Assembly: GCF_964204645.1 (NCBI RefSeq)
Contig: NC_134036.1
Span: forward strand, 10,085,859 to 10,149,858
DNA: 64,000 nucleotides
Source: Tubulanus polymorphus
Taxonomy: Eukaryota; Animalia; Nemertea
Reading direction: 5' to 3'
The notes under the pieces are model-generated. The model was not told where the DNA came from and searched no databases. It saw nothing but the letters and a program-made list of their open reading frames with translations. Within the stretch, counting starts at the first letter, position 1, and each line of letters opens with the position of its first letter. A program made the position numbers and the translations under genes. This document shows positions 198 through 55,533 of this stretch, one piece after another.

Positions 198-484
198 TTA
201 TTTGAATACATTTAGGATAAAGGATGAGCCGTTTTGAAATAATTGTTGATTTAAAGAGGGTCGTTGCGCTTTAATAAACAGGGCCTCCCTAATTTTACAG
301 TCGAGATCAGATGAACCTTTGTCTAGAATTTTGAATTTGTTGTTACTGAATTCCTGATCATAAGTGTGACAAATTGCGAGATGTTGTCCAATCGCAGAAG
401 TCTTTGATCTGTGTTCCTTAATCCTGATGGCCAAATGTCGTTTAGTTTTCCCAATATAGGAAGTGTTTATATCACATAAACAAT
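198..484 (-). pseudogene. PLE GIY-YIG endonuclease C-terminal fragment
   Basis: CLCD..SYIGKTKRHLAIRIKEH...SAIGQH...REALFIK...PSLN motifs. The first codons of the tracked ORF come from the Maverick TIR. Confidence 0.9.
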
Positions 485-896
485 AGTAGTTAGGAAATGT
501 CACTTCAGGACCTCAATGAGGAGGGGGGAGGGGGAGGAGTGAGGAGGGTGGAGGGGGAGGAGTTTCTTAAGATTTTTTTCTTAAGATTTTTTCCTCAAGA
601 TATTTTTCTTAAGATTTTTTTTTCCTCAAGATATTTTTCTTAAGATATTTTCCTTAAGATTTTTTTTCTTTTTTTCCTTTACGAATTTTCTTTTTGGCGG
701 CAAAATTCAAATCATTGACTATGTAAATTCCAAATCAATTTATTGATGTGATTAATTCCCTAGATGGCGCCACTATTACGAGATCCTATGCGTGTGTGTG
801 TGTGAGGAGGGGGAGGAGTAAATCCTAGATGGCGCTTTCTTTTCCAGCATTACCAATTTCGAGTGATACAAAGAAACCACAAAAAAAACAAATGTA
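485..896 (+). repeat. Left terminal inverted repeat of Maverick A
   Basis: Near-identical reverse complement of 16534-16991. Contains a G-rich tract, AAGATTTTTTTCTT-type tandem units and two CTAGATGGCG motifs. Confidence 0.95.
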
Positions 897-998
897 TAAC
901 AAATTAATGTCAACAATTAAAAAACATTTATTAACAATAAACGCGCAATAAATAGAATAGATAAATAAATAATCATATACACTGCGTTATTTCCTATA

Positions 999-3900
999 TC
1001 AATATCCGTACGGAAGCGTGTTATACCGATCTGCGGGGTCGAAAGCTCGTTTAGTATAAACCGCGCGATATATTTTTCGTTCGTCTCTATTGTAAATAGA
1101 ACAGTCCTTGATCTTTCTATTAATTTTGTCAGGGTTTAATATGTAAAGATGGTCGTACTTTTCTTCGACAATTATATCTACCATGGAACCAAAGTTTACA
1201 ATTTGTTTGTTTCGAAAATTCAAATTGATCCCTTTAACTTTACATTCCGTTGAAAATGTATTATCTCTAGGACTGAATACCCGATATGCATAATTTTTGG
1301 GTCCAGCCGAAACAAATTCTGAAATAAACGACCCCTCCCCGTATTTATCGACCAATTCATCGGTCATATCACCCAAAAAATTCCCGGTCGGCGGATCCCA
1401 TTCACCAGGTTTCACGCTATAAATAATGGAGTCGGTATCCGTGTATAGGGTTCGTTCCCCTAATTTCTCCATATAACTATAGAGAATAAGCCGCGCATGA
1501 GCCGTTGTGAAAGCTGCTAAAGCGACGCTGGTTTTGTTTGTCGATTCGACAAATTCTGCGCGTTTTTTGTAATGCACTCTTAGCACCTCGTCATTACACA
1601 ACAACAAATCGCTTATCTCTAAAGTTTCATCCAAAAGCATTCTATATAATTCCCCGGGGTCCAAAATATATTTAGCCGTCGTCTTATTTTCGTTTTGACC
1701 GAGTTTACCCCACATCGAATTTAAGCATAATTTCGTGACTGTTCGCATCCCCTTGGCTTTCTTAATCTTATCTTCTTCGAGTTGGATACCCTCTCTTTCT
1801 AAATAATCGGAAATGAATTTATCCTTCTCGTCGCGCGACATATCTTTACACGGCCAACCACTGGCTTCGGTTTTAACTTTGAGGAATTTTCCTATATAAT
1901 CCTCGAATAAACCCGTTTCATTAGTTTCCCAATTCCAAATTTCATATATATCTAATATCTTATAACCAAGTGTCACTGCTTTTTGTACCTCTAAAGTTAC
2001 CCAGGTACCCGTTATCGAACGCTCATTTGCCGAATGTTGACACTTTTCGCGCTGATTGCTTTCATTAGCGCACGTTCGACACAATGGAAAAGTCAATTTC
2101 CCACCCGATCTATACGGGAGCACGGGTAGATATAAACCCCGAGGCGGTAAAACCTTACACTTAATCAACCCGTAATAATTATCGATATGGCGGAAATTTT
2201 CAGTCACGATAGTCGGATGACCGATTGGATAACTGCAACGACTGTTGACGTACGGGTATAACGAGCATATGTCGATGTATTTGATTTTTTCTTCACCCTC
2301 GGCTTTGCGATAAATTTTTATCGCGTTCGTACGACCTCCAAAAAATGCGTCACGTGGTTGCAATGGATCGAGAATATCAGATTTTTTGACAAAATCTGCA
2401 AACGCGCGGTTTTCTTTAACCAAGTCACGATATTCGTGTTCCCAAAATTCCACCAAATTGTACCCCATAGCCCTAATTTTAGATGTTTTTTCTAATGTGG
2501 CCTGATATAATTCACCGAATTTACGATCGGGCCGTACAGGAGATATCAAATCCGGATTTTTGAAACACTTAGGGCATCCGTGATATAAACAACCGTGAAA
2601 TTCGTACACGGTATTGGATTCGGCGTGATAACCGTCTACTTTAAAGCGGTCAATCGATACTTCGCCGCCGTTCAACGCGTGTTGGACTCGTATGTCATTC
2701 GTTGTGGATACCCATTTCAACCAGTTAATTGCCATCTAGGAAAATTTTGCATTAGGTTTATAACCCCCCGGAGGGATTAGCCCTATTGTTGTCGGTTTCA
2801 AAAAGTTTGTTCGTAACGCCACATTGCACGCCGATGCTATAGTGATGCTGTTACGAAATGGATCAACAGCCGAAAGAGCAAAGAATTGATGTTGAAAATT
2901 TACGACGGATTGCATTAGAATATCCACATCCGAACGACAGTATTCGACCAACTCGCGTTGCATGTCAAAAATGAAATTTTCCGACTGACGATCGCTATGC
3001 CACTTTATTAAATCAGACCTTTCGCTCGAACTTAGACCGTCGGGATTGTAATATTCTATATCGGGAATAGGTCCGACGTAATCAATATTCTCGCGAGTGC
3101 AAAATTTATACGGAAAATAGCCCTTTTTCAACTCAGGAATACCTAGTGTTTCGGGTAATTTAGCGAGTTTCATCGGTAGAAAATTTAAAGTATCTAAAAA
3201 CTTTATATCCAAATGCTTGACGGTCATAGTCATTATTTTCCCACCGTTTGGTATAATATCCGGTAATATACCTTGTGAAACCAAATATTGCAGAATGAAA
3301 TAACCGTCGAAAGATTGAAAATTATGCGCGAAAACAGTGGCACCCCTATTCTCTTCCGTAAACAACCACTCGCAGAGTTCAGAGGCCGTTTTAAACACGT
3401 GTTCGTGTTTACCGCAATAATCGCAAACCGAGTCGGGGGTCCGTTTCGACCATTTACACATCTGACATACTCTATGTGCTATACCCAGTACTACAACGTG
3501 GTTCGATTCCACAGTCGTTGTTTCAAAATCGAATGCGATGAACTTTCTATATTTTAACTCATCGCCCGCATTTTCAGCGTCCAAATAAGGGTTGATTAGT
3601 GTATGAGGGTTACCCTGTTCCTCAGATACCACATGATCCCGACTTTTAGCGACCCCGATGTAACAAAGATGACCGCTAAGCTTTCGCTCTTTACAAGAAC
3701 TGCAATATTTTTGCCCGCAATCGTGAGATTTGGGGTCAAGTTTTTTTCTAGATACAATAGAACCGCATTGTAAACATCTAGCCTTTGAATCGCATAAGCT
3801 TGACCCATCTGGTCTTGGTCTGCAGTGTCTGGCTAAACACGCTTCCGATTTGAAATAGATATTGCATTTTATACACAAATAACTACCCCTTTGTTGTCCG

Positions 3901-6097
3901 CAATTACCTAAACAAAGTCTGCATTTATCTGTACAACTGTGTCGTTCTGTATTCGTATACCCTTTTTTACAAGAATAGCAAAAATATGTACGACACGTAA
4001 ATGCAGACATCGATGTAATAACGTCAAAATGTCCAGCCGTATATAAAAGTTCAATCTTTTTACCCCCAGCTCCTTTATTTTTTAGCACGGCGTTGTTTTT
4101 CTCGTAAATGATATGATACGCATTATCATCTCCAGTTGCGACTAATACGTAGTAATCGGATAATTGTTGCGCAAATACATCCAATTCGCGCAATCCACAC
4201 TTGCCTAGAGGTACACCGGCATTCGTGTGTAAGGCAATTGCCGCATTCTTCTGCAAAGGCCGGTCGCATCTACGTATGACATCATATCGGGGATCATTGT
4301 CCGCACGCGCTTTTGCAACCACTATTGACCTAGCGAGACACAAATCATCGTCATTATCAATTGAGACAACGCATTTTTTGTTCTGTCTAAACTGATTGAA
4401 GTTTACCTCGACGCGTTTACGACGTACACCACCTAGCGGCATTCGAATGAATGTACAATGGAAAATTAATCCATCCAAAGACAAATCCTCATTCGACTGT
4501 AGAACACGTATTAGCCTATCGAGTATATATTCGACCGTTAGTTCGTCCAACGATACGAATGGAAATTCAATGTTTCCATTGAGATCCGTGTGTTCGATAG
4601 ATATACGAATCATGTCACTCGAACGAGCGTCCAGCATTTCACTAATTGCCGCTAAAACGTCGGTTAGGTAATTTCGGACGATTGTCTGTGTATCCTGCGC
4701 GTCGAGTGTCTTGTTATTCTGGTCATCACGCGGAATTACGGTAACCTTGTACAACTCAGTTTTCATGTTGAATTTTTTGCTGTGTTGTACGCCGTTCTGT
4801 AAAATAATGGAAACATTCTTTTTAATCATTTTTGTTCGTCATTATGTTAAACGAATTTTGGTGTATTCGATTACTTACCCTGACCAGTTTAATATTGCCC
4901 CGTATTATCTCGTCGGGGTTTTCACAGTGAGGGCGCTTCGAACACGGCACTTCTTCCTCATCATCATCAATATCGTCAATAGGACGCTTCGATGTTGAGG
5001 GTCGTGGAGCGAATACCTCGCCGTGACGTTTTAACTCGGCGATCGAATGGAACGAATCCGAACATCGCGAGCATGTAAACTCCCGTACGGCTGGTGGTGG
5101 TGGTGGTGGAGGCTGTGGTAAGGCCGACGTCTTTTTAGGTTTACACGTTCTCATGTGCCTTACCAAGTTATCCTTACGAGATAGCGTTTTGCCGCATATG
5201 TCGCAAGAATGCTAGAAAATAGAAAAAAATACCCGGATTATATTAAAGATGAATAACAGTTTTTTTTAGCAATTCATGATTTCGATTACTTACAGAGTTA
5301 GACGTCCAGGGGTGAATGGGGTGACAATCAGGATGTGGCGGTGGGTTCACACGCGGAGGGTTTACGCGCGGTAGAGGGTTTACACGCGGTGGTTCAACGG
5401 ATCCTTTACACGTTTTGACGTGTCGGCGCATGTTGTCTACGCGTCCAAACACCTTGCCACATTTGCTGCACTCGGGTCCCTTCAATAGACAAATATATAG
5501 AATATAAATAACGGGTCTTTTTGTTTGTTTATTTGTTTTTCTTTCTTTAGTAACTCATAATTTCACTACTTACCGGTCTAGCTTCTGATGTGCCTGGTTG
5601 CGAGTGTAGTGATACGTGTTTGGCAACGTAGCCCTTACACGTTTTAGCATGCCGGGTCAAGTGATCTTTACGTGTAAACGACTTGCCGCATGTATCGCAT
5701 TGCCAACCATCGGTAGTTCCAAAGTGGGAACTCAGATGATGTGTCAGTGTTTGCTGGTCAGCAAAGTTAAGACCACATATTATGCAGTCCCATATTTGCT
5801 GAAAAAATAAATAAATAAATAAATAAACCGGGTATTTAAGAATACATTAAAATAATTAATTAATGAAATGAGCGATTGTAAGCTACTTACCGGATTGGCC
5901 GAAGCTACAGGCATCTGTTGTTGAACCGGTTGGGGTGTCATACATATAAACGTGTGCTGCGTTAAATCGCGCGCACACGCAAATGCTTTGCAACAGCTCA
6001 AGCACTTGAACCCCTTCTTACCAACGTGAAGTTGTTGGTGTTGTTCCAAACCCAGTTCATTGACAAAGGTCAACGGGCAGTATTGGCATGAATACAT
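999..6097 (-). CDS. polB: Protein-primed DNA polymerase B with spliced multi-zinc-finger N-terminus (exons 6097-5891, 5798-5574, 5479-5294, 5211-4879, 4796-999); one in-frame TAG at 2736-2738
   Basis: Exonuclease motifs (FDFET, HNFQSFDG, YCRSDV) and polymerase motifs (DICSLYP, KLCLNSMWGK, YTDTDS). Vsr-like insert (VDGY..YEFHGCLYHGC) and OTU-like Cys/His pair (DDLCLARS...HFDVI). Four GTAAGT...AG phase-0 introns join the ZnF exons in frame. Confidence 0.85.
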
Positions 6098-6168
6098 TTT
6101 CTGTGAGAAAAAAAGATTGAATATGTGTTATTTTTTAAAAGAGACTAATCTGTGTCTACAAGTCAATT

Positions 6169-6465
6169 ATGGGTCGACTATCGAGTACAATGGACGGACT
6201 ATTACGAAGGCTATTGTTCACGATTTTGGATTACACGCGAATACACCAAGTGTTACTCGGTCAAAAGCATTTAACAGATATTCAACGTTTAGCCAATGAT
6301 TTTGTAAATTGCGACGAACCAGATGGATTATGCATAGTTTTGAAAGAATTAAATATGACGGAGCGATTCCTTTATAAAATTGTTGGCGCTATATTTTGTT
6401 TAGACGTGATTGATCTTCAACCGGAGCGTAAATATTTCATACGAAGAACGTATATCGACGTGTGA
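6169..6465 (+). CDS. Hypothetical protein (98 aa)
   Basis: ATG-initiated ORF inside the element; no recognisable motif. Confidence 0.35.
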   Translation: MGRLSSTMDGLLRRLLFTILDYTRIHQVLLGQKHLTDIQRLANDFVNCDEPDGLCIVLKELNMTERFLYKIVGAIFCLDVIDLQPERKYFIRRTYIDV

Positions 6466-6768
6466 AAAAAGTCAAATAGCGTTTATGAAAACATATTCAA
6501 ACCTCGAATATCTAAAATCGAAAAATAGTCAAACCGTATTTTTAACTAATGTTATTTTGTCAAAACCGTATAGTATTTTCCTATTAAAAAAGTTCAAACC
6601 TCATTTTTTCAAAATTGAAAATTGTTAGAACCTCGTTTAGTGAAAATAAAGAATTTAGTAAACTATAAAATGCGTGTACTGTATTTTTAAAATATTGACA
6701 ACCCCCTTGTTTCTATTAAAAGTGTTTTTCATTCGTAGCTAAAACACTTAAAACACTAAAACACTAAG

Positions 6769-7418
6769 ATGGCAGAGTATAATGGCCCGAGATACTTATC
6801 CCACCCATTCACGATGATAGTCGCAGGACCGACGGGTTCCGGTAAAAGTGTGTTTGTCAAAAAGTTATAACGGAGAATCTTGTCGAAAAAAATCCCGATA
6901 AGATATATTGGTGTTACGCGGAGGCACAACCCGAAATGTTCAATGAATTGGAAAAGTTTGGAGTGCAGTTTGTAGAGGGTTTTTCCGGAGAACTCTACGA
7001 CAAAATAGATGGCAGTAAACGTACATTAATTATAGTCGACGATCTGATGAATGAAGTAGGGGGTAATAACGCGTTAGCTTCTTTGTATACACGAGGATCC
7101 CATCATCGCAACATCAGCGTTATTACGATTGTACAAAATATTTTCCCGAAAGGCAAAGAGTTTAGAACGATTAGTTTAAACTCGCATTATATTGTCGTTT
7201 TTAAAAATGCGCGAGATAGAAATCAAGTTCGCGTTCTCGCTCAACAAGCCGGTTTGAAAAACGAAATTGAAGCGGCCTTTAGAGACGCTACCATGGAACC
7301 CCACGGTTATCTTTTACTGGATTTTAAACCAAAAACTGTTGATAGATGGCGTTTGAGAACTAGAATTTTTCCTAGCGATAAATACCATATAATATACAAA
7401 ACAAAGAAAATTCATTAA
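6769..7418 (+). pseudogene. A32/FtsK-like packaging ATPase, frameshifted near 6868
   Basis: ATG 6769 gives HPFTMIVAGPTGSGKS (Walker A) and then a stop. Walker B (IIVDDLM) and RGSHHRNIS continue in another frame (ORF 6936-7418), consistent with a 1-nt deletion. Confidence 0.9.
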
Positions 7419-7456
7419 AAGTATAATTTTCGACTAATAACTAATAAAAGAAGACC

Positions 7457-7840
7457 ATGGCGCCGCGTAAAAACAACTCGTTACAAAGAGTGAAAAAATA
7501 TATACATCATTTACACGTGTTGGGTAAATGTAATAAGAAACAACGTCGAGCGTTGATAGAATCGGCTCCGTCAGACTTAATCAAGTACGTATGCGAGATA
7601 TCCAAAAACAGTTTAGCCGGGAATATAAAACATAGCGACAAAGATAAACGCGTGTTGAAACAACATAAGCGTTACATACGCATGTTGGCCAACAATTCGA
7701 TAGCCATTAAACATAAACGAGGAATAATTTCGCAAAAAGGTGGATTTCTGCCATTCATTTTACTACCACTTTTGAAACCTATACTGACGTCTGTTTTAAC
7801 GAACGCCGCAAACCGAATAGTAGATAAGGCAACAGCATGA
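7457..7840 (+). CDS. Basic Maverick virion/core protein with GG|F protease-type site
   Basis: Lys/Arg-rich; QKGGFLPFILLPLL resembles adenain cleavage sites followed by an amphipathic peptide. Confidence 0.7.
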   Translation: MAPRKNNSLQRVKKYIHHLHVLGKCNKKQRRALIESAPSDLIKYVCEISKNSLAGNIKHSDKDKRVLKQHKRYIRMLANNSIAIKHKRGIISQKGGFLPFILLPLLKPILTSVLTNAANRIVDKATA

Positions 7841-8517
7841 AGAACGTTGAAAAGTTAATCATTTTACCCGATTCCATGTTACCCTCGATACAAGCTTTTA
7901 TCGCGAGTCAGGAACGTCGACAAGAAAAAGAAACACCCGCTACCTACAACCCTCTAACGGATAACAAAATACCCGACGATCTCAAATACTTAAAGTATAA
8001 TCAGTTATTGCAGCAAGAAATACATAAATCGTCTACAGAAAAGGACATTAACCAAACGACACAAGATATTAAAGAAATCTCGGGCAAATATACTACGCAG
8101 AAAATTATTGATCGGTAACCGTTAAGATTTAGGAAAAAATGTAAATCCCTATTAGCATTTTTTGAAGATAATCCAGGAATTTTGAAATGGAATGATAAAG
8201 GCGAACTGATTTACAAGGACAATCTAATTCGTGGAAGCAACATTGACGATATTTTACACATGTCGTTAGTACAAACTAAAATGGATCAAGAATATATCGG
8301 CCTAGATAAATATATATCTGCATTTAACGAGTTGAACGTACCATTGAGTCTTATTTCGAATAAAACGTTAAAGAGAAGTATCAAAGGTGCACTTACCGTA
8401 GATTTAGATACGTCGTTGTCTCCAAAGAGGAAGAAACCAAAGTATGATCAGAGCGGATCCGGACTGCGTGGAGTGCGTGATGGCAATGTGAATTTCACAA
8501 ACTGGTTATCCTTTTAA
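7837..8517 (+). pseudogene. Conserved Maverick hypothetical protein (WNxxGE...GSNI motif), split by a stop at 8116-8118
   Basis: ORFs 7837-8118 and 8182-8517 share a frame; KWNDKGELIYKDNLIRGSNIDDIL is typical of Polinton accessory proteins. Confidence 0.7.
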
Positions 8518-8847
8518 CGACTAGAAAAACCTAATCGCGACTGTCAAAAAGCTTTGACCAATGACCTGGCTTCATTTGTGGCGGATTGATATGATATATG
8601 CGGGCTTCATTATTCGTGTTTGGCATGTCAACGGTCAGTGGGTTTTGCAATGATATCATTAGTGGAATGGATATAGCAGTTTCATTTTGTGACGCGATAT
8701 TAAGAGTTAATTGTGGAGTGCTGTGACCGAGTTGACGTAACACTAATAGTTAATTGGATGTACGGGTTTCATTTTTGGGTCAAGATAAATCGATATTAAT
8801 TGTCGATTGGATATGTGGGTCTCATTTGCGATCGAGTTGGTACATTA

Positions 8848-9372
8848 ATGATGATTGAAGTTGTAAACGTTGCGTCTACGGGTAATCTGAATTGCCGTCT
8901 AAATCTAGCCGATATTGCAGGAAAATTGTGTAATGTCGTCTATGACCCCCGAAAGTTTAGTGGATTAATATGGAAACACAGAAGTATACAGGGTAATTGT
9001 CTATTGTTCGTAAATGGTAAAATGGTCGTGACCGGATGTAAAAGCGAATTTAACAGTCGGCGTAGTACAAGACAATTCGCTCGTTTGTTGCAAAAGATGG
9101 GTTATATTGTGAGCTTGACTAATTTCAAAATACAAACTATGACTGGAGTTGTAAAAACTGATCGACGTGTGGACTTAATAGAACTTTCCAAAACAGTTCC
9201 CGGTGACTACAATCCCGAAATATTTCCCGGTTTTGTTTACAAGTGCGAAAACGGGATAAAATGTATAGTACATAACGGCGGTACTTTAATATTGTCGGGT
9301 GCCAGAAAACTCTACGATCTACGGGAAGCCTATGAAGAAGTTCTATTCTATACCATTCTTTGTTCCAAATAA
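8848..9372 (+). CDS. TATA-box-binding protein (TBP)-like
   Basis: Two-repeat TBP core: VVNVASTGNL...YDPRKFSGLIW...LLFVNGKMVVTGCKS and FKIQTMTG...YNPEIFPGFVY...GTLILSGAR. Confidence 0.9.
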   Translation: MMIEVVNVASTGNLNCRLNLADIAGKLCNVVYDPRKFSGLIWKHRSIQGNCLLFVNGKMVVTGCKSEFNSRRSTRQFARLLQKMGYIVSLTNFKIQTMTGVVKTDRRVDLIELSKTVPGDYNPEIFPGFVYKCENGIKCIVHNGGTLILSGARKLYDLREAYEEVLFYTILCSK

Positions 9373-9544
9373 AAAAGTCATTAAAAGCATATTGTTTTTT
9401 AAGTGTAAATAAAATTATGAGAAAAGATGAATTGGCGAAAGTTGTTTTGTTGTTGTTTAAAGCAGGAGGAGCCGAATTTCGAGTGTCGTTTCAATAGAGT
9501 TAATTGCGTATTAAGTACGTGTTGTGGTAGTACAACTGTAATTG

Positions 9545-10627
9545 ATGAAAGCCGAACAGAAAAGGTTCCTGGCGAATCAATATTATGGCGTCGACAAAGA
9601 AGGAAGTTTTTCAAACGCAAATACATTACTACGGATTTGTAAAAAAGAAAACAAAAATATCTCTTTACGTGAGATACGAGACTGGTTAACCGAACAAGAA
9701 GTTCACACTTTACACGCCAAAGTGCGAAAGAGATTTCCGAGAAACAAAACTATAGCCTATCGAGTGAACGAGCAATTTCAGGTCGACTCGTGCGACGTTT
9801 CGAATATTTCGAAACACAACGACGGTTACAAATTTCTATTGACGGCTATCGATGTATTGTCTAGATACGCGTTCGCTATACCGTTAAAGAATAAATTTAA
9901 TTCTACCGTTGTGGATGGTTTTAAAAAGATTTTCAAGATTAGGAAACCTAGCGTTATTCAATCGGATTCAGGCACAGAATTTGTCGGTTCAAAAACGCAG
10001 GCGTATCTGAAAAACGAGGGCGTACGTTTTTTCCAAAGTAAAAACGGAGTGAAATGCGCTTTAATCGTAAGATGGATACGTACTTTAAAATCGAAAATGT
10101 ATAAGATATTTTCGCATAGAAATTCATACAGATATATCGATTTGCTTAAAGATATAGTAGCGTCATACAATAAATCGTTTCATCGTAGTATAAAAATGGC
10201 TCCAAACGATGTCAACGAGTTAAACGCGCACAAAGTTTTCAAGAATTTATACGGTACAATCCGTAGTAAAAAACGCGTGAATTTTAAGTTTCGCGTTGGC
10301 GACACTGTTCGAATAAGCGAACTCAATGGTCAATTCCAAAAAGGCTATTTACCCGGTTGGAGTACTGAGTTGTTTGTCGTTACGAAAAGAATTATGCGTG
10401 AACCACCTGTATACAAGATTAAAGATTTACAAGACGTAACAATAGATGGCGTGTTTTATGGTTACGAGTTGATAAAATTCAATAAAAAGGATGAAACGTA
10501 TAAGATCGAGTCGATAATTAAAACTCGAGGTAAAGGCGCTCGAAAACAATACTTGGTAAAGTGGTATAACTATCCCGATAAATTCAATTCTTGGGTGAAC
10601 GCTCGAGATATCAAGAAATTACCATGA
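9545..10627 (+). CDS. int: Retroviral-like (rve) integrase with C-terminal chromodomain; catalytic Glu apparently lost
   Basis: QVD, IDVLSRYA and QSDSGTEF motifs; KCALIVRW where KxxxxERF is expected; YLVKWYNYPDKFNSWV chromodomain. Confidence 0.93.
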   Translation: MKAEQKRFLANQYYGVDKEGSFSNANTLLRICKKENKNISLREIRDWLTEQEVHTLHAKVRKRFPRNKTIAYRVNEQFQVDSCDVSNISKHNDGYKFLLTAIDVLSRYAFAIPLKNKFNSTVVDGFKKIFKIRKPSVIQSDSGTEFVGSKTQAYLKNEGVRFFQSKNGVKCALIVRWIRTLKSKMYKIFSHRNSYRYIDLLKDIVASYNKSFHRSIKMAPNDVNELNAHKVFKNLYGTIRSKKRVNFKFRVGDTVRISELNGQFQKGYLPGWSTELFVVTKRIMREPPVYKIKDLQDVTIDGVFYGYELIKFNKKDETYKIESIIKTRGKGARKQYLVKWYNYPDKFNSWVNARDIKKLP

Positions 10628-11450
10628 GTCAGGATTTTACGTGTATCTCAAAAGCGATGCTAGCACTGATATTTATCCCGATAATACGCGACATAGTTTT
10701 AAGGTCCGATTACGAACACCGATTTCACTTCAAGGCAAATGGTTTTGCGCTTTACATCAAATAAACTTTATGGCTGATTTCAATAACGTGAACAATGGAA
10801 GATTTCAATGTACGTCGTCTGAGCACGGAACTCATTATCTCGATATACCCACGGGTCGCTATTTGACAATTAACCAATTAATTGTCGCTATACAGGCAGA
10901 GTTAAACAAATGGTACGACGATAAGATAGTTCTTGCATTCGATGAACTAAGTCATAAAGTTAGTATCCGATTTAATGACGACTGTTCAATAACTTTTACG
11001 AACGATATTGCGTGGATCTTGGGTTTTAAAGAAAATATACCGATTAACGAAGATATATCAGATCGTCGTCAAGGTTCTAAAATACACGGTCCTGTACTGT
11101 CAGATTCATCCGATAGTAAAACAGTTTACAAATACATCGAGGTCACTGCAACCCGCAGTTCGGATATAAACGTCGATTATCATAATTTGATGGTATATAC
11201 AGATGTTATCGAACCACAGCTGGTCGGACATCAAAGCGCAAATCTCTTACGTCTGATCGATTTGAATCCGAGAAATTTTGGTAAAATTGTTGGTCGAGAA
11301 TTTACCAAGTTACAATATTTTCCGCTACAAAGACGGAATTTTCAAACTATAGAAGTCTTTATTAGGACCGAATACGGAAGAATCCCCGTTTTCAGAAAGG
11401 GCAAAGTTAACCTGGTTCTGCATTTCAAAAAGAAGAATTTATTGCTATGA
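10624..11450 (+). CDS. Minor capsid (penton) protein; 1-nt deletion in a T-run just after the ATG
   Basis: MSQDF(Y)VYLKSDASTDIYPDNT..F.VRL and VYTDVIEPQLVG...LLR...LVLHFK motifs. ATG 10624 is out of frame with ORF 10641 by one base. Confidence 0.85.
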
Positions 11451-11860
11451 GGGCTCTCTGCGAAATCGATCGGGATGCTTGTTGTAAATATTACATGAAC
11501 CAATGCGGTTCGGGTATTGACGTGTACACGGCATCCCCCGTACAAGGCGGTGCTGGATTTGCATCAGTCTTGGGCGGGTTGGCTCGTCCAGCTATTCCAC
11601 TACTAAAAAATATGGCCAAGCAAGCGGTTCCTCATTTACTGAGAACTGGTTTACACGTAGCCAGCGATGTGGTAGGCGGTAAGAATATCGCGACAGCCAT
11701 CAAAGATCGTGGCATCGAAACAATGGGTCGCATTATCAAACGAAGCTTAAAAAGACCATCTACCTCAAACCCAAAATCAATAAAAGGTCGTAAACGAAGT
11801 AGACGTATAACAACCGGAAAACGCGTTCGAAAAACCAAAGCATTCGCTGAAGCGTACTAA
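11447..11860 (+). CDS. Basic core protein (pVII-like)
   Basis: YYMNQCGSG and QGGAGF protease-type sites; Arg/Lys-rich C-terminus; located just upstream of the MCP. Confidence 0.75.
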   Translation: MRALCEIDRDACCKYYMNQCGSGIDVYTASPVQGGAGFASVLGGLARPAIPLLKNMAKQAVPHLLRTGLHVASDVVGGKNIATAIKDRGIETMGRIIKRSLKRPSTSNPKSIKGRKRSRRITTGKRVRKTKAFAEAY

Positions 11861-11862
11861 TT

Positions 11863-13173
11863 ATGTCGTTATTGGTACATAAGGATTCGCCACTGTGCGT
11901 CAAGTCCGAACTCGATTTGTTTACAGTTCCCGGAACACAGATAAATTTCAAAGAATGCCGATACGTTAGCTACGAACCCACTACGTCGATTAACGACATG
12001 GGGCCGATTGTATTCAGAGTGCCAAAAACTGAACAATATTTAGATTTAAACGTGACGTATCTAAAACTACAGTTCAAAATAGTTAACGCCGATGGAACTA
12101 ATGTAGGGCCCGAAAAGTCAGTCTCAATGATCAATGGCGCCTATAGTCTATTTAGCGATGTACAAATTACGCTTAACGACCGAGTGGTTACCCACGACGG
12201 GGGGTTATACCCGTTCAAATGTGAGCTGGAAAATATGGTTAATTACAACTCGGAAACTAAAAACAACAGCTGGCTACAATGCGATCTTTATGTCGAAGAC
12301 GAAGCTGGAAAAAAGTCAAATATCGATCCTACTTTACCAAACGCAAATTCCGGTTTGGTCAGAAGGAATAACTACACTAAAGGCAGTAAACTGGTTTGCG
12401 CTTATTCTCGGTTGTATAGCGATGTACTGAGAATGAATAAGATTTTCATCAACAATACAGATTTACAAATAAAACTAACTCGATCAAAGGAAAGTTTTGC
12501 TCTAGTTTCCCCTGTCGAAAACCCAGATTTCCGTATAAAGATTGAAAGCGCTCAACTATACATTCGTAAACTAGAACTGGATAGTTCTGTTTTAGTAGCG
12601 CATGCTAAAGCACTGGAAAAGAATGCAGCAAAATATTATTTTTCGAGAACTGAATTATTATCGTTAAATATTCCAAGAGGTCATAGAACAATTATCAAGG
12701 ATTCCGTTTTCGTCGGTGAGATACCAAAGGCTATTGTTTTAGCTTTAGTGGACGACGACGCGTTGAGCGGCAATTACAAGAAGAATCCGTTCGATTTCAA
12801 GGATTATTCATTGAATTATATAGGGGTTACCGTTGATAATGTCCATGCACAAAACTCGCCGTTAATTATAGACTCCCAGGGCGACGGCTGCGAGGTGTAT
12901 CACGGTTTATATTTAGCCCGGGGCTTATTGTATAAAAACGAAGGAATTGGGATAAAACGTGAGGATTTCAAAAAAGGCAATTTTATTTGTGGGTTTAACA
13001 TGTCGCCCGAGTACGGGGATCAGCCGCACCTGTCACTAATTAAAAAGGGCTCGCTTAAAATCGAAATGCGATTTGATGAAGCTTTACCGCATAACGTGAA
13101 TTTGATTGTTTACGCCGTTTTCGACGAATTACTACAAGTAACCAAAGAACGTCATATAGAAATCGATTATTAG
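11863..13173 (+). CDS. Double jelly-roll major capsid protein
   Basis: KSELDLFTVPGTQ, YLDLN.TYLKL and GNYKKNPFDF motifs of Maverick MCPs; 436 aa, intact. Confidence 0.93.
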   Translation: MSLLVHKDSPLCVKSELDLFTVPGTQINFKECRYVSYEPTTSINDMGPIVFRVPKTEQYLDLNVTYLKLQFKIVNADGTNVGPEKSVSMINGAYSLFSDVQITLNDRVVTHDGGLYPFKCELENMVNYNSETKNNSWLQCDLYVEDEAGKKSNIDPTLPNANSGLVRRNNYTKGSKLVCAYSRLYSDVLRMNKIFINNTDLQIKLTRSKESFALVSPVENPDFRIKIESAQLYIRKLELDSSVLVAHAKALEKNAAKYYFSRTELLSLNIPRGHRTIIKDSVFVGEIPKAIVLALVDDDALSGNYKKNPFDFKDYSLNYIGVTVDNVHAQNSPLIIDSQGDGCEVYHGLYLARGLLYKNEGIGIKREDFKKGNFICGFNMSPEYGDQPHLSLIKKGSLKIEMRFDEALPHNVNLIVYAVFDELLQVTKERHIEIDY

Positions 13174-13178
13174 CGATC

Positions 13179-13643
13179 ATGTTATACACCAACAAAATTT
13201 TAGAATTTATGAAAAAAGACGAATGTCTAAATACGTCTTTCTTTGGTGTTTTTCCATGCGATCGACTACCGGATATAACGAGCTATCCGGCTGGTTTTAT
13301 AGTAAACACTGATAATCACGACGAACCTGGCGAACATTGGCTAACTATATATATAAACGAATACGGCATCGGTTATTTTTTTGATTCCTTCGGGCAACAA
13401 CCCGGAACTTATGATAAAATGTTAGAAAAATACTTGGATGAAAATTGTATAGAATGGAAATATAATAATAAGATGTATCAAAACGTATTATCCGATGTAT
13501 GCGGTTATTACGCTATATTTGTACTATTACACCTATGTCACGGTAACGATGTACGCGATATTACTAAACTATTGTCAAACAAAACTAATGATAATGATTA
13601 TTTTGTAAAAAAATTTATCGTGAAATATTTTAAGCTTCTATAA
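13179..13643 (+). CDS. Adenain-like cysteine protease (capsid maturation)
   Basis: NTDNHDEPGEHW, FFDSFG and YQ...SDVCGYY catalytic His/Asp/Gln/Cys motifs. Confidence 0.95.
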   Translation: MLYTNKILEFMKKDECLNTSFFGVFPCDRLPDITSYPAGFIVNTDNHDEPGEHWLTIYINEYGIGYFFDSFGQQPGTYDKMLEKYLDENCIEWKYNNKMYQNVLSDVCGYYAIFVLLHLCHGNDVRDITKLLSNKTNDNDYFVKKFIVKYFKLL

Positions 13644-13650
13644 TAAACTA

Positions 13651-14212
13651 TTATGTATATGAATTTAGTCGTTTTTTAAATTCCACGAACCCACCAGAAG
13701 AGTTTTGTTTAAAACTCTTCAATATAAAAAAACACTGAAGCATAAAGCGAAGCGAGGCGTTTAAACACTGGCTCTTTCTTGGAAATTGAAGTAGTTCTGA
13801 AAAGAACTGTTTAAAGGGGGGTTTCACGTGGGCTTCGTCGTCGTCGTCGTCGTCGTCGTCATAATCATTGACGCTGCTGCTGCTTCGTCTTCTATTAGCT
13901 TTCGCTATTCGTTCACGGACGAGGCGACTATGGCGACGCATTACTCGGGCCCAATATATCGTGTTCCGACAGAACGGACACGATATAACATTTTCCGCAT
14001 TTGGGAGGCTGTTGTCTATGCCAGTACAAATCAACCTTGCTGTGCAATTATTGCACAGCGGATACTACGGATACTAGCGGATTGACGCTACGGTACTGGC
14101 ATAGACCGCACAGCATCCAGGCCCGCTGTCCTGAACACAGACAAATGTCACACACTAATACCGCTTCTGCATCGTCCGGGATCACCGTCCAACGAGCACC
14201 GTTGTTAGTCAT
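13651..14212 (-). pseudogene. RING/zinc-finger protein disrupted by a 19-nt insertion at ~14064-14082
   Basis: Removing 19 nt joins ATG 14212 (CDIC...CGLC) in frame with LCNNC...CPFC and the Ser/Asp-rich tail of ORF 13651-14034. Confidence 0.65.
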
Positions 14213-14363
14213 TTTCGTAATGGATTTTAGAGATCTTCTGACGAGTATTTTATACGCAGTAGCTACTTTGCGTGGCAGATGTTTTGCAATGGATGAATCA
14301 AGGGTCTTTAATTACCTAATTGTCTATTCGGTTTGGTTTCTAAACCATTCCGTCACATATCGA

Positions 14364-14552
14364 GGGTACTGACTAGATATTTTAGACGGCAGATGCTAAC
14401 AAACTGGTCAATGATTTTTGTTTCTCAATTACTTAATTGCGTAATTTTCATCCCGCATATTCCGGCACATATGGGGGTACTGACCAGCTATTTTAGATGG
14501 CAGATGCTAACAACGGGTCAATGGTATTTGTTTCTCGATTACTTAATTACGT
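14364..14552. repeat. Two-copy ~110 bp tandem duplication
   Basis: GGGTACTGAC.AG.TATTTTAGA.GGCAGATGCTAACAA...GTTTCTC.ATTACTTAATT occurs at ~14364 and ~14475. Confidence 0.75.
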
Positions 14553-14723
14553 TCTTTGATGATATATTGTATAGAAGGGGCCTAGGCAACGACGAAATGC
14601 TTGATTATTATAGAGCAAATAAAATGAGACAGATATGAAATATTATATCCAATGCAAGTTTATTATGTATTAAACATTTGAATAAGCTTTTATATAAATA
14701 ATATCTAATTATTATCTGTGAAA

Positions 14724-15530
14724 TTATACTTGGGTTATCATTATACCGTATTCAGGTGCTTTTCTAACCCCGCTTGTGTCTTTTGCGCAGTACGGGCACC
14801 TGTATTCCTGATTCGAGTGACTCGAATCGTACCAGCACGGTCTCATATTAGCCATTTCGGATATATCTTCTGTAAAATAAATGTCTTTCAATTTTTTCCA
14901 TTGTTCCAATGTTAGTTTTACGCCGCATCTAGTCGGATTTACATCGGACAGCTCATCGTGTAGATCGTATTTTCGGATATCTACGTAAATACGGTGATCG
15001 TGACTAGATCTATATATTTTGATAAAGTTTGAACGACCAACGGTCATCACGCCTACGTAATCGATATCTTCTTTAACGCGCGCAATTTCGTGTTCGATAT
15101 CGGCTTTACAATAATCTATATGTACCCACTCTTGGAGATCCAAAGCAATACCGTTTTTAGTGGGGTACAGTTGTTTTCTACGTTCACAGCATTCGAAAGA
15201 TCGTAAATCTATACGTTTTAACCCCTGCCACGTTTTCGCACTCGCGTACACAAGCGATCCTAGATAATGAGGCTCGGGGTCATTGTTCCAGGTATTCCGT
15301 TGAACTTTCGACGGAACAGCGTTGTCATTTACGATTGAACCTATAAAACAATAAAAAATATTCTATATAGGTATGCGTCTAAAAAATAATTACCGGTTTC
15401 GAATACGGAGAAGAAGTAGAAACTTACTAAAGTCGAGTTTGTGCGAAGGACGTTTTCTTTTTCTAGATTGAGTAGATGACTTTGGTGTACTACATATTTC
15501 TAAGGTAGTTTGTCCACTAGTCGAATCCAT
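14724..15530 (-). CDS. Tandem PC4-like ssDNA-binding/coactivator protein, 2 exons (15530-15428, 15340-14724)
   Basis: RIDLR..F...PTKNGIALDLQEW and VDIRKY...PTRCGVKLTLEQW repeats. An 87-nt GTAAGT...TAG phase-1 intron joins an ATG exon carrying an NLS-like RKRKRP. Confidence 0.8.
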
Positions 15531-15759
15531 CTGGGTGATACAGGTCGATGTTGACGGGTCAAAGTCTCTGAGCAGATTGATTAATTTATGGATTTACAAC
15601 GCGTTTTTATTGTCAGGAAATGACTTGCCCGAACACGATTTACGGTTTCACATGTTATTGCGAAATATTTTTCGCCCAAACTCGTTCATGATTTCGCAAT
15701 AGCCGTTAAAAGACGCCATCTTGGAATTATCTCCCACTTTCCCATCCTCCCCCTCCACA

Positions 15760-15760
<1 letters not shown>

Positions 15761-15828
<68 letters not shown>
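15761..15828. repeat. (CA)n microsatellite
   Basis: Uninterrupted CA dinucleotide run. Confidence 0.99.
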
Positions 15829-15831
<3 letters not shown>

Positions 15832-15954
15832 GCTCGCGCTTGCGCGCGCACGTGCACAAGAATACGTAATATTGAGCCCGGTTTTAACCGATAGCTCACT
15901 CACTCGCTTACACTCGCTCGCTAACGCACGCATAAACAAAACGTGATTTACAAA

Positions 15955-16506
15955 ATGTCTGGCAAATTTTTCACCGTTGATAATATTTTCCGCAAAGGAT
16001 CAGTTACCAGGGAACATATCGACTTTGAAGATATCGACTGGTCTACCGGATTTGCAATTTGCAAATATTGTAATACGTCAATTACATACGGTAGTTTTCA
16101 AGTAACGACCTGCTGTAGGAAACCGATTTGCGAAGATTGTTGGTTGGTAAACACTCGGTGGTTAAGCGTTCAGCATAATTTTAAATGCCCTATCGAGGAT
16201 TGCGTGGCACATTTTAGGATTATAAGACACATCGCGAAAAAAGACTGCTATCGATGTCGCGGACAGGAGGATTTGTTTCATTGTTGCGGTAAAACTATAT
16301 GTCGGACATGTTTAAACGACCTCAAAGCGTATGAAGGGTATAAAGAAAACTTTTGTTTTAACTGCGTAACTTTATTTTGTGGCGTAAACACGTGTTTAGT
16401 ATGTTTGGAGATAACTAAACAAAAGACGGACTGTTGCGGTACTTATGTTCACGCTTCGTGTGCGAAGGAATTCGGAGTTAAATCGTGTTTAAACTGTAAA
16501 TTTTAA
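15955..16506 (+). CDS. Cysteine-rich multi-RING-like protein
   Basis: Repeated CxxC...CC.K.IC..C units (three imperfect RING-like repeats). Confidence 0.7.
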   Translation: MSGKFFTVDNIFRKGSVTREHIDFEDIDWSTGFAICKYCNTSITYGSFQVTTCCRKPICEDCWLVNTRWLSVQHNFKCPIEDCVAHFRIIRHIAKKDCYRCRGQEDLFHCCGKTICRTCLNDLKAYEGYKENFCFNCVTLFCGVNTCLVCLEITKQKTDCCGTYVHASCAKEFGVKSCLNCKF

Positions 16507-16533
16507 CGGTCAATAAATGTTTTTTATTTGTTT

Positions 16534-16991
16534 TACATTTGTTTGTTTTTTGTGGTTTCTTTGTATCACTCGAAATTGGTAATGCTGGAAAAGAAAGCGC
16601 CATCTAGGATTTACTCCTCCCCCTCCTCACACACACACACGCATAGGATCTCGTAATAGTGGCGCCATCTAGGGAATTAATCACATCAATAAATTGATTT
16701 GGAATTTACATAGTCAATGATTTGAATTTTTCCGCCAAAAAGAAAATTTGTAAAGGAAAAAAAGAAAAAAAAAATCTTAAGGAAAATATCTTAAGAAAAA
16801 TATCTTGAGGAAAATAAAAATCTTAAGAAAAATATCTTGAGGAAAAAATCTTGAGAAAAAAATCTTAAGAAAAATATCTTAAGAAAAAAATCTTAAGAAA
16901 AGAATCTTAAGAAACTCCTCCCCCTCCCCCTCCTCACTCCTCCCCCTCCCCCCTCCTCATTGAGGTCCTGAAGTGACATTTCCTAACTACT
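16534..16991 (-). repeat. Right terminal inverted repeat of Maverick A
   Basis: Reverse complement of 485-896 with extra copies of the internal AAAAAATCTTAAG unit; ends in ACTACT. Confidence 0.95.
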
Positions 16992-18560
16992 GAGGTTCTG
17001 AGTTCTGTTTTGATTTCAAAAATCTATTAATACATTGATCGATGACATGAATAGGAAACGCATTAGATTTAAACAGATTTTTCAAGAAATTGATTTCTTC
17101 TGAAAAGATGGTCCAATCACTGCAAATATTGTAGGCACGAAAAAGCATGGTATTGATGAGTCCTATTTTCCATTTATACGGACACATGGCGTTGAAGTTC
17201 AACAGTAGGCCTGTGTTGGAAGCTTTCCTGTACACTCGAGATATAAAGTCACTACCGGTTTCTAACGGAATTTGTATTTCGGTATCGAGAAAAGGTAATA
17301 GATTAGGACCTAGTTCAAAAGTGAATTTAAGGTTAGAATGGAGGCGATTCAATTCTTCAAAAAATAGTCTATAACTGGATACATTTCGAAATATGCCGAA
17401 AATATCGTCCACGGATCTCAGGTATAATGTCGGTTTGTAATTAGTTTTGGAGAGGAGCAAGTTTTCAAAATGGGCAAGACAAAAGTTCGCTAAGGTTGGG
17501 CCTAAGGGGCTGCCCATGGTGACCCCATCAACTTGCTTAAAAATACGATCATTGTACATAAACAAACCCGAAGTTGCGATTTTAAGTAATTCTTTGAATG
17601 TAGCCTGATCATATGTAGGTTTAGAGTCGGAAGCATATATATAATCGGAAACTATATCAATGGTTTCTTTCAATGGAACATTAGTGAAAAGTGACTCTAC
17701 ATCAAAACTTATTAGAATATCAGAAGGTTTAAAAACGAATTGTTTCAGTTTTTTAAGGAACTCCCAAGTGCTATTTAACATGAATTTAGACGGTATATGT
17801 GGTTTAATGATTTTATCGAGATATTTGGCCAGGTTATATTCAGCAGTGTCGATCATTGATACAACGGGTCGAAATGGAAAGTTATCTTTATGCACTTTGC
17901 ACAAACCATATAATTTACCAGGTTGGCTACCGCTTGGGTAGATAGAATCAAATATTTCTGAACTTACATAGTGTTTCACATGTTTTCTCAGAAATCCGCA
18001 GATTTTGGTTTCATTAGATATGACAGGGTGATTCTTTCTCACATTTTTGATTTCAGTAAATTTACTTTTATCAAATACAATTTTATCTAATTTATCGAAA
18101 TATTCCTTAGAGTCCAAAATAACAATGCCGTTGCCTTTGTCAAATGAGCAGATCTTAATGTCCTTGTTTTTTCGAAGTTTTTCAATCGTACGGTAGAAAC
18201 GTCGGTTCCAGGTCGAGCCACATACTGATTTAGCGCTGTTGATAAATGAGATGGTCGCATGTCTAATACTTTCAAGGAAAGAGTTATTCACATTCGGTTC
18301 GCCGCCAGATATAGTCCTATTTTTGTGGTAAACAGTTTTTTCAATACGTGATTTAAGGTCGATTTCGTTGATATTTTTCGGAAGAATGTGATGCTTTAAG
18401 CCGTAACGTAGTATCTCAGTTTCTTCTAGGGATAGTTGATAATTTGATCTATTGATTAAGCAATCCGGTGCTGGGTGACGCTGATCTTTCCACAAGTTTA
18501 AAAGCTTGCGTTCATGACGTTGCTGTGTTTCCGAAGTTAGTTTCCTGCCTTTCTGGTTAA
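16992..18560 (-). pseudogene. Penelope-type reverse transcriptase, 5'-truncated
   Basis: DKGNGIV, LYGLCKVHK, RPVVS, SFDVESLFT, GVTMGSPLGP and LPFLD motifs; the YVDD motif reads SVDD. Confidence 0.93.
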
Positions 18561-18582: not shown

Positions 18583-18753
18583 TTTAGCACTTGTAATTTT
18601 GTAACTTATGTTGTATATAAACCTGTAGTTTAATCATTTGATTCACTTGTATTTCACCTGATGAGGGGATATGATCCCGAAAACGTTCGTGTTAATGAAC
18701 TGTATTTACTCATTAGAAAATGAGGTTTTTAATGTTATCGCTTCTATGGTTAT
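18583..18753 (+). repeat. Inverted pseudo-LTR of PLE-1
   Basis: 18583-18738 is the reverse complement of 1-156; it abuts element B pPolB sequence at ~18754. Confidence 0.9.
18655..18691 (+). ncRNA. Hammerhead ribozyme, second copy
   Basis: CACCTGATGAGGGGATATGATCCCGAAAACGTTCGTG, identical to the minus-strand copy at 48-84. Confidence 0.8.
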
Positions 18754-21297: not shown

Positions 21298-21326
21298 TCA
21301 AATTTTAATAAAAATATGTTATTAAA

Positions 21327-21680
21327 ATGGAGAGTAAACAAGCACACAGTGAGAACAACAAATTATTTCTAGATAGAATTAAAGATACTACAAATGTAAA
21401 ATCTGTAGATTATAAATTCAAAAAGTTAACAGAATTAATAATCCATAAGAAATATCTAATTACAAATATTGTTACAGTTACTAATAACTATGGAGATAAA
21501 TTAGTTATACACTTAGAATATGAAGGATTAAAAGGAAATACATATAAATTCAGAACATATTTACCTGATAGATTTCATAGATTATCAAGTGAAGATTTAG
21601 AAGAATTATGTTCTGGAGATTTCTATTTCGTATACAAAGGTAAAAATGAAAAAGGGCACCATGAAATAGATTTCGAATGA
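21327..21680 (+). CDS. Small conserved protein (117 aa), homolog of 52919-53260
   Basis: Near-identical to the element C copy. Confidence 0.8.
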   Translation: MESKQAHSENNKLFLDRIKDTTNVKSVDYKFKKLTELIIHKKYLITNIVTVTNNYGDKLVIHLEYEGLKGNTYKFRTYLPDRFHRLSSEDLEELCSGDFYFVYKGKNEKGHHEIDFE

Positions 21681-21697
21681 GAAAATATGTAAAATAA

Positions 21698-22453
21698 ATG
21701 GCGGAATTAAAAGAATACAGAATATTTGTTGATTCTAGAAGGCTTACAAATTATAAATCACATAATTTACTAGTACAATTAGATAGAGAATTCAAGAATT
21801 GTGTAGATTTAAAATTAGTTAATATAAGTTTATGTAATTCTTTTTACAATGTATCGGATAAAACTTTTGAACACAGAGGGTTTATGATTTATATGAGAAA
21901 TAAAGATAAATGGTTTCATATATTTTTAAAACCAGGATTATATAATTTAAAATCATTAGCGCAGGAAATTAATAGAACCGCTCGGTTGAAAATCGGGGGC
22001 ACTTCTGTATTTGAAATCAAATTTAATAAAATTGATAGTACTAATAAAATTAGAATAAAGATATCTAATGAACAACATAAATTTATGGTAAACAAACCAC
22101 TAGCTAAAATGTTAGGAATTAAACCGCTTACAGTTACTGGAAACGCAGAAGGCAGCTCAAATATAATACCTTTTACACACTTTTATATTTATTGCAATTT
22201 AATCGATCCTACAAAAACATTCGAAGCAACTAAAGAAACAATTTGTAGTTCTAGTATACTAAATATTTTACCGCTAAAAAATGTTAAACAATTTGGAACT
22301 CAAATAAATTATAATTTAACAGAATGTGATTTTAAACCTTGCATTCCTAAATTTAATAATTTTAAATTAGAAATAAGAAATCATAATGGATACTTAATTG
22401 ATTTAAATAATTTCCCTGTAATTTATTAATTAGTTATAAGATGTAGAGAGTAA
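21698..22453 (+). CDS. Probable minor capsid (penton) protein, premature stop 8 codons from the end
   Basis: IFVDSR...LDREFKN...L.NISLCNSFYN and IYCNLI...LIDLNNFP penton-like motifs; TAA at 22427 where element C has GAA. Confidence 0.75.
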
Positions 22454-22455
22454 TC

Positions 22456-22918: not shown

Positions 22919-22930
22919 TTATTATTTGAG

Positions 22931-23821: not shown

Positions 23822-23853
23822 TTATTATATATATTTTTATTAAAGTTAAAATT

Positions 23854-25100: not shown

Positions 25101-25112
25101 TTTTTATCATGG

Positions 25113-26521: not shown

Positions 26522-26537
26522 TTACATAATAAAAAAA

Positions 26538-27863: not shown

Positions 27864-27879
27864 TTATATAATTAAAAAA

Positions 27880-28314: not shown

Positions 28315-28333
28315 TTATTTAGAATAAAAATTA

Positions 28334-28756: not shown

Positions 28757-28780
28757 TTATTTAGTTAAAAAATTATGCAT

Positions 28781-54034: not shown

Positions 54035-54051
54035 TTTTTTTCACTATATAA

Positions 54052-55517: not shown

Positions 55518-55533
55518 TTTTTTAATTATATAA

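Follow-up and report, generated by a model that had tools for sequence, protein, structure and literature searches.

The stretch of DNA analyzed here, which we call the window, comprises 64,000 nt of the genome of the nemertean Tubulanus polymorphus (NC_134036.1, positions 10,085,859 to 10,149,858, assembly GCF_964204645.1) and contains a Maverick (Polinton) element of about 16.5 kb bounded by terminal inverted repeats (TIRs). The minus strand of the element carries the gene for its protein-primed DNA polymerase, pPolB, and ahead of it lies a leader of four short exons with zinc-finger motifs. It had been proposed in a preliminary description that this leader is spliced in frame to pPolB, so that the fingers would precede the terminal protein (TP) and viral OTU-like protease (vOTU) domains in a single product. 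We read the gene structure on the minus strand of the window and re-derived it by script. Table 1 lists the features.

Table 1. Features of the Maverick element and of its leader-pPolB gene (positions in the window)
Feature	Position	Strand	Remarks
Left terminal inverted repeat	486..899		G-rich run, 14-nt tandem array, two CTAGATGGCGC copies
Right terminal inverted repeat	16533..16990		with left repeat bounds element of ~16.5 kb (486-16990)
Leader exon 1	5891..6097	-	69 codons; start ATG 6097; fingers 1 (C2H2) and 2 (C2HC)
Intron 1	5799..5890	-	92 nt; GTAAGT...CAG; 21% G+C; phase 0
Leader exon 2	5574..5798	-	75 codons; fingers 3 (C2H2) and 4 (C2HC)
Intron 2	5480..5573	-	94 nt; GTAAGT...AAG; 23% G+C; phase 0
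Leader exon 3	5294..5479	-	62 codons; finger 5 (C2HC) and Pro-rich PRVNP repeat linker
Intron 3	5212..5293	-	82 nt; GTAAGT...TAG; phase 0
Leader exon 4	4879..5211	-	111 codons; finger 6 (C2HC), poly-Pro stretch, incomplete finger 7
Intron 4	4797..4878	-	82 nt; GTAAGT...ACAG; phase 0; predicted leader-pPolB join
TP-like domain D1	4437..4796	-	exon-5 residues 1-120; start of exon 5
Low-confidence linker	4407..4433	-	residues 122-130, after P-L-G-G
vOTU-like cysteine protease domain D2	3984..4415	-	residues 128-271
pPolB part 3' of D2	999..3350	-	Pfam and ORF reading

The four introns lie where the preliminary description had placed them, with the same lengths, GTAAGT...AG boundaries and phase, and the exons of 69, 75, 62 and 111 codons do run in frame into pPolB at NGVQHSKK. 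In every intron the GTAAGT start is followed by a T-rich tract and then AG, and both ends fall between codons; with GT...AG ends, a pyrimidine tract and one frame restored on removal, all four have the features of U2-type introns. Exons 1-4 are free of stops and exon 5, which begins at 4796, is in the same frame as pPolB; retention of any of the four introns leads to a stop within 8-36 codons. The G+C content is 47-56% in the exons and 21-26% in the introns, and the lengths of the internal exons (225, 186 and 333 nt) are all multiples of three. When GTAAGT was counted on both strands of the window we found 24 occurrences vs 28.6 expected from shuffles; on one strand of the 1301-nt leader there are four vs 0.24 expected (Poisson P 1.2e-4). 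The clustering of the leader donors is beyond chance. As had been claimed, a listing of open reading frames (ORFs) that requires a start codon and at least 50 aa omits exon 2. Intron 4 contains both the stop of the unspliced frame (4822-4824) and an ATG in frame with pPolB (4827-4829).

Leader exons 1-4 encode seven C-x2-C-x12-H motifs, six of which have a fourth ligand at the usual spacing. Seven fingers with Pro-rich linkers had been announced; the linkers and six complete fingers, two C2H2 and four C2HC, are present, and the seventh (5023-5073) has C-C-H only, with a non-ligand residue at the fourth position in the window copy. The fourth ligand is retained at the matching position of P0019, a related T. 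polymorphus protein model introduced below. Pfam C2H2 families match all four exons, and against the PF00096 cut-off of 25.2 bits exons 2 and 4 score above (39.6 and 35.9 bits) and exons 1 and 3 below (20.0 and 22.9 bits). Fingers 1 and 2 are joined in exon 1 by HVGKKGFKC, which we take to be a classical tandem-finger linker, and the remaining fingers are single units with Pro-rich stretches between them. The 3' part of exon 4 encodes a basic/acidic KRP...DDDEEE...KRP patch and then a conserved tail, ...IIRGNIKLVR, that extends up to the donor. The leader is probably a nucleic-acid-binding and nuclear-targeting module.

Downstream of the leader, the two halves of pPolB score 77.7 and 95.7 bits against a Pfam cut-off of 25.8, and PF03175 is located after an OTU-fold domain. 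An AlphaFold (AF2) model of exon-5 residues 1-300 (mean pLDDT 86.2) has a first domain, D1 (residues 1-120), with the order beta-beta-alpha-beta-alpha-beta, a disordered linker at 122-130 and a second domain at 133-266. Three residues are invariant in 41 out of 41 aligned sequences, namely Ser101 (4494-4496), Cys153 (4338-4340) and His256 (4029-4031), as are four Cys. Ser101 ends the helix 88-101 (alpha2), ahead of the strand 111-117 (beta4); since it is invariant and lies between alpha2 and beta4, it is the predicted linking residue. The OTU-like region of the preliminary description is real: VIA-align with residues 128-271 gave OTU-fold proteins in 49 of the 50 entries shown (Z 7.4-9.3, 98-131 residues aligned), and its Cys153 and His256 are among the invariant residues. 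Foldseek against PDB returned no match at E <= 0.001; in its weak rows D1 pointed to Y-family polymerases (E 0.014-0.05) and the second domain to OTUs. Structure prediction had been suggested as a way to locate the site cut by the OTU domain, and the model does place the disordered linker right after P-L-G-G. A P-x-G-G linker is visible in other relatives, with PLGG also in the related contig L001, and P-L-G-G is a candidate for the place where vOTU would cut between TP and the rest.

Evidence for the join comes from comparison with close relatives. L001, a contig of the metagenome collection, has the same layout and is 46% identical to the window in the TP-OTU part, with an intact 216-aa divergent ATPase gene on the opposite strand. 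Its leader is one exon of 128 codons that contains two fingers, a Ser/Pro linker, a basic/acidic patch and the sequence ...LIKGNVKITR, followed by GTAAGT; the intron measures 336 nt, as compared to 82 nt for intron 4 of the window, and its acceptor precedes the TP domain. Residues 1-66 of window exon 1 align with L001 residues 1-66 (E 1e-19), and residues 3-111 of exon 4 with L001 residues 32-128 (E 4e-12), both sequences ending at a GTAAGT donor. Past the acceptor, residues 4-292 of exon 5 align with L001 residues 4-290 (46% identity, E 7e-95). Since the alignments end at the donors and resume with an equal 4-to-4 offset, the position of intron 4 is conserved codon for codon in L001. A pyrimidine tract and a CAG three bases 5' of the leader ATG (cagaaaATGTA) were observed in both sequences (window 6098-6116, minus strand; L001 4255-4271, plus strand); the CAG resembles a splice acceptor and hints at a possible untranslated upstream exon.

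The RefSeq models of T. polymorphus, all three named 'uncharacterized protein', likewise have fingers and pPolB in one product. P0019 (XP_074661123.1) is 49% identical over the pPolB half and collinear with exons 1, 4 and 5: its first residues are homologous to window exon 1, and it is gapless over the junction, with window exon 4 ending at its residue 151 and exon-5 residue 4 at its residue 155. In P0168 (XP_074651572.1) a finger is joined to GTQHSRKFNMNT, which corresponds to the same acceptor. P0019 contains three finger motifs and P0168 one, as compared to the seven of the window. A third model, P0018 (XP_074648785.1), is an 88% identical sister copy in which an exon-1-like tail runs into exon-2-like sequence without an intron and then jumps to the OTU domain; either this copy has suffered a deletion or a decayed copy was modelled wrongly.

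The survey was then extended to more distant sequences. A scan with a 4-row alignment gave 15 metagenome loci, of which ten were examined; L005, L010, L012, L013 and L014 were excluded because their matches begin at query residue 138 or later. Finger motifs lie upstream in the pPolB frame in 4 of the 10 loci, and fingers and pPolB share a single uninterrupted ORF in L008 (three fingers) and in L002 and L007 (one each). P0001, a predicted protein of 1387 aa that is 35% identical, has three fingers joined to pPolB, and the cluster that it represents at 90% identity comprises 33 members, of which several have a length of exactly 1387 aa. Among 152 relatives (the best 150 of 7660 hits plus P0001 and P0002), eight have finger motifs ahead of the aligned part; Pfam C2H2 families match seven of these eight at E <= 0.01, with only three above the cut-off. 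Protein searches with exon 4 alone in the 'longer' and 'near' length ranges gave no match, and a scan of the viral-contig collection found no relative. In a quick tree of 110 rows, built from the window and those 109 of the 152 relatives that had good coverage, P0019 is the partner of the window (support 100). Two of the metagenome loci begin differently: pPolB of L002 starts with a Rho_N/HeH domain (1067-1600, plus strand; 28.8 bits vs a cut-off of 24.9) followed by one finger, and L007 has a weak Rho_N/HeH-type start (816-1301, plus strand) and then one finger in the same ORF as the polymerase. Such varied DNA-binding modules on pPolB leaders fit a general theme of a DNA reader placed before the primer protein.

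Sister copies were compared as difference tables derived from DNA contigs. In exon 4, 18 out of 25 variable places are third codon positions, and over all exon sequence covered the count is 22 out of 30 (P 8.8e-6). The two indels in exons are 3 nt each and the five in introns are of 1, 1, 1, 2 and 2 nt. One sister copy has deletions of 1, 2 and 2 nt in intron 3 with both splice sites intact; two 1-nt deletions in intron 4 of a sister copy likewise leave both splice sites intact. Conservation of splice sites in sister copies had been named as a check, and indeed GTAAGT and AG of introns 3 and 4 have no listed change. This pattern of substitutions indicates that exon 4 is under purifying selection. 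It also bears on the possibility that the leader derives from a host zinc-finger gene, or from another repeat, and adjoins pPolB in frame by coincidence. In favor of this, animal genomes abound in C2H2 fingers, a random GT...AG pair preserves the frame one time in three, and the introns are confined to the leader, with none in the other element genes examined. Yet within the TIRs the leader occupies the interval between the pPolB and ATPase genes, as it does in L001; homology to L001 and P0019 covers its first 66 residues and its end; and purifying selection acts on it in many sister copies, so that an accident of this sort is hardly credible.

Several observations weigh against a leader that is spliced to pPolB and reads DNA. 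The only sequence runs found to cover the region (X1-X3) behave as DNA, since their contigs extend through the introns, and they show no joints there. P0019 and P0168 are computational predictions, not RNA. Scored with a profile of 36 distant relatives, the spliced N-terminus reaches 35.9 bits, the unspliced one 37.5 and exon 5 alone 36.5; the profile is indifferent, and support for the fusion comes from close relatives only. The finger label needs six changes on the 110-row tree, five of them forced by well-supported branches, which suggests that leaders were gained repeatedly or that many are hidden in exons missed by ORF callers. Most of the fingers are isolated, with long Pro-rich linkers, unlike a classical tandem DNA-reading array, and the window copy carries a TAG in pPolB as well as the incomplete seventh finger. 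Finally, an in-frame ATG lies within the intron in three elements, the window (4829), a sister copy and L001 (4977), and a leaderless pPolB made from unspliced RNA is therefore possible.

The last point leads to a reading with two genes, in which the finger exons would be a separate accessory or regulatory gene in the 'Oncoid' position that ends at 4822-4824, and pPolB would start by itself at ATG 4829. The unspliced frame does close 18 codons past exon 4, the ATG at 4829 is in good context and is kept in the sister copy, the intron of L001 has its own in-frame ATG, the distant-relative profile has no preference for the spliced form, and Starrett et al. (2021; PMC8502044) describe zinc-motif ORFs upstream of PolB. 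It is difficult to reconcile with such a reading that donor and acceptor are conserved codon for codon in L001 despite a different intron length and sequence, or that the exon 4 tail is conserved up to the donor in both P0019 and L001. In one sister copy the stop of the unspliced frame is changed and the read-through tail is frameshifted. Moreover, in other relatives a single uninterrupted ORF spans both fingers and pPolB, the overlap of stop and ATG leaves no room for a terminator and a promoter, and the LxCxE motif is absent from the four exon translations. We regard two separate genes as improbable.

Both forms might also be made, with splicing as a switch: removal of intron 4 would give the fusion, and a finger-only product and/or leaderless pPolB from ATG 4829 would result from its retention, from skipping of exons 2-4 or from use of an internal promoter. 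The internal exons, all multiples of three, and the ATG kept inside the intron of three elements are what such a switch would need, and the computed model P0168 joins an upstream finger to the same acceptor without finger 7 and the tail. P0168 may instead come from a copy that had undergone a deletion, it is not very unlikely that 5-14 open AT-rich codons contain an ATG by chance, and skipping of exon 4 would delete the conserved tail. A regulated pair of products seems unlikely to us, if somewhat less so than two separate genes. The claim that a multi-exon leader is spliced in frame to pPolB is supported by the comparison with relatives, and an independent start at ATG 4829 is possible as an additional mode. 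The gene structure is thus very probable, and we propose that intact members of the family make a ZnF-TP-vOTU-pPolB polyprotein from a nuclear, spliced mRNA.

The window copy itself is not intact. An in-frame TAG at 2736-2738 (minus strand) truncates its pPolB, and the spliced frame as written stops after 317+686 codons, before the second polymerase half; the product of about 1582 codons that had been predicted is attained only by reading through this TAG. The sister-copy contigs have a sense codon there, and the TAG is thus private to the window copy or to a minority. The divergent ATPase gene (6769-7418, plus strand; ATG 6769, MAEYNG...) is interrupted by a stop 33 codons in and continues in a different frame from about 6867, and the sister-copy contigs vary in length near this frameshift. 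With the TAG in pPolB, the incomplete finger 7 and the frameshifted ATPase, the window copy is unable to make the full product. The window element is a decayed member of a family with many copies in the same genome; although this locus is defunct, the trait is genuine at the level of the family.

In the rest of the element, the main arm of the TIRs is 97% complementary. Each repeat contains an array of about seven tandem 14-nt units (in the left one TTTCTTAAGATTTT, at 563-666) and two exact copies of the 11-mer CTAGATGGCGC (760-770, 825-835, 16597-16607 and 16662-16672). This 11-mer occurs four times in the window vs 0.17 expected, and presumably resembles a CTCF-type core motif. No target-site duplication of 5-6 bp was found, as the six bases outside both element ends differ; a flank might have recombined or been rearranged. 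The integrase ORF (9545-10627) scores 40.9 bits for rve (cut-off 32.6) and 34.6 bits for a chromodomain (cut-off 25.1). An adenain-like protease is weak, with 19.8 bits for Peptidase_C5, below the cut-off of 21.3 (E 6.6e-4). In the packaging ATPase the Walker A sequence GPTGSGKS and LIIVDDL are legible, and its 160-aa piece matches no Pfam family; nor does a 436-aa ORF (11863-13173) at a place expected in Maverick/Polinton elements match any Pfam family. The element also carries a TATA-binding-protein homologue (8848-9372, plus strand; PF00352, 113 bits) and a PC4-like transcriptional coactivator (14724-15047, minus strand; PF02229, 31.6 bits).

Outside the TIRs the element is flanked by a GIY-YIG ORF (198-503, minus strand) and a reverse-transcriptase ORF (16987-17856, minus strand) in a Penelope-like order. 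Since the two are on the same strand and in this order, the Maverick probably sits inside a Penelope-like element. A further inverted repeat, 99% alike, pairs 1-156 with 18583-18738. Beyond it a second virus-like, AT-rich region (18671-30095) has an Endonuclease_7 domain (18671-19480), pieces of a polymerase-like ORF with a DTDS motif at 20620-21297, and a Pox_A32 ATPase (29484-30095, minus strand); one of its polymerase pieces ends at a GTAAGT (20526-20531). Inverted repeats of several kb, 23789-29379 and 54032-59867, are 89-97% alike and about 25-34 kb apart.

How does this gene compare with known ones? It has been reported that Polintons/Mavericks encode a TP-vOTU-pPolB polyprotein in which D1 is N-terminal and the linking residue lies between alpha2 and beta4 (Krupovic et al., 2024; PMC11161782). 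After the leader the window gene has the same domain order, with a TP-like D1 and a Ser between alpha2 and beta4, an OTU-fold D2 with Cys and His, and PF03175; as far as the main text of that article goes, in which the word 'zinc' has 0 occurrences, the window adds about 317 residues, seven finger motifs and four exons before D1. The alpha-type adintoviruses of Starrett et al. (2021; PMC8502044) have the same PolB type (OTU plus pfam03175) and a zinc-motif region directly upstream. The 'Oncoids' described there are separate ORFs upstream of PolB, with paired CXXC and LXCXE/CK2 motifs, whereas the window has C-x2-C-x12-H-x3-H/C fingers, no LXCXE, and a predicted splice to PolB. Intact vertebrate Mavericks, with TIRs, pPolB, integrase, ATPase, protease and capsid genes, are elements of the same type and are reported to have intronless ORFs (Barreat and Katzourakis, 2021; PMC8097293); the window pPolB has four predicted spliceosomal introns, with one position conserved in L001. 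Spliceosomal introns within integrated elements are shared with dinoflagellate Maverick-Polinton-like proviruses (bioRxiv 10.1101/2025.03.18.643946). According to that preprint, the latter are copies of mobile introners inserted after integration; the leader introns have no clear resemblance to one another apart from their splice signals and the first 13 bases of introns 3 and 4, and one of them is old enough to be common to sequences with 46% protein identity. We found no account of a Polinton/Maverick PolB that bears C2H2 fingers in the literature searched, which covered passages from main texts.

Based on these comparisons a series of steps can be proposed, which as a whole (spliced leader, polyprotein and proposed functions) we consider likely. 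Nuclear transcription would probably start from the divergent region of about 670 nt that is common to the leader-pPolB and ATPase genes. The host spliceosome would remove the introns and translation would begin at ATG 6097. The basic/acidic patch of exon 4 probably aids nuclear import of the product, and the leader fingers are likely to bind nucleic acid. In our preferred reading their target would be the terminal repeats of the element itself, which would place the TP domain with Ser101 at the ends for protein-primed initiation. vOTU may then cut the P-L-G-G linker and leave ZnF-TP on the 5' ends.

The number of fingers varies among relatives: L002 and L007 have one, L001 has two, P0019, L008 and P0001 have three and the window has seven. 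Given relatives with one, two or three fingers, the lineage of the window has likely expanded its array to seven. Growth may have occurred by modules of a finger plus its linker with an intron before each. Such a duplication of intron-finger-linker modules is plausible because fingers 4-6 are alike (mutually 51-64% identical, and similar to the second finger of L001) and introns 1-3 each lie near a finger start, 2-4 codons ahead of its first Cys. When the introns were aligned, only the splice signals and the first 13 bases of introns 3 and 4 were found in common. The introns have no clear common origin, and module duplication is therefore deduced from the similarity of the fingers.

In adenovirus, the host factors NFI and Oct-1 recruit the pTP-Pol complex to the inverted terminal repeat. 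Adenoviruses and Mavericks belong to the same virus kingdom and are protein-primed, and in both a sequence reader might bring primer protein and polymerase to the terminal repeat; the adenoviral readers are separate host proteins, and that of the window would be built into the primer protein. Along this line, one could go further and suppose that the finger array is an origin-recognition module which reads the 14-nt units or CTAGATGGCGC and stays covalently attached to the ends as ZnF-TP after vOTU cleavage. Its specificity would shift in the course of evolution by duplication of a finger plus intron, and in individual cells through skipping of the symmetric exons. We rate this extended version as doubtful. 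If it were true, the origin-recognition fingers would do for the element, from within and in a splice-tunable way, what borrowed host factors do for adenovirus.

No study known to us demonstrates how a Maverick/Polinton locates its termini for protein-primed replication, and zinc fingers built into the primer protein offer a testable hypothesis for end recognition. ORF-based annotation misses the true start of such a polymerase. With one to seven fingers, the relatives form a small natural series in which the multiplication of exon-intron modules could be studied. Finally, old spliceosomal introns can reside in a core gene of an animal Maverick, which implies nuclear transcription and a long coexistence of the family with the host splicing machinery.

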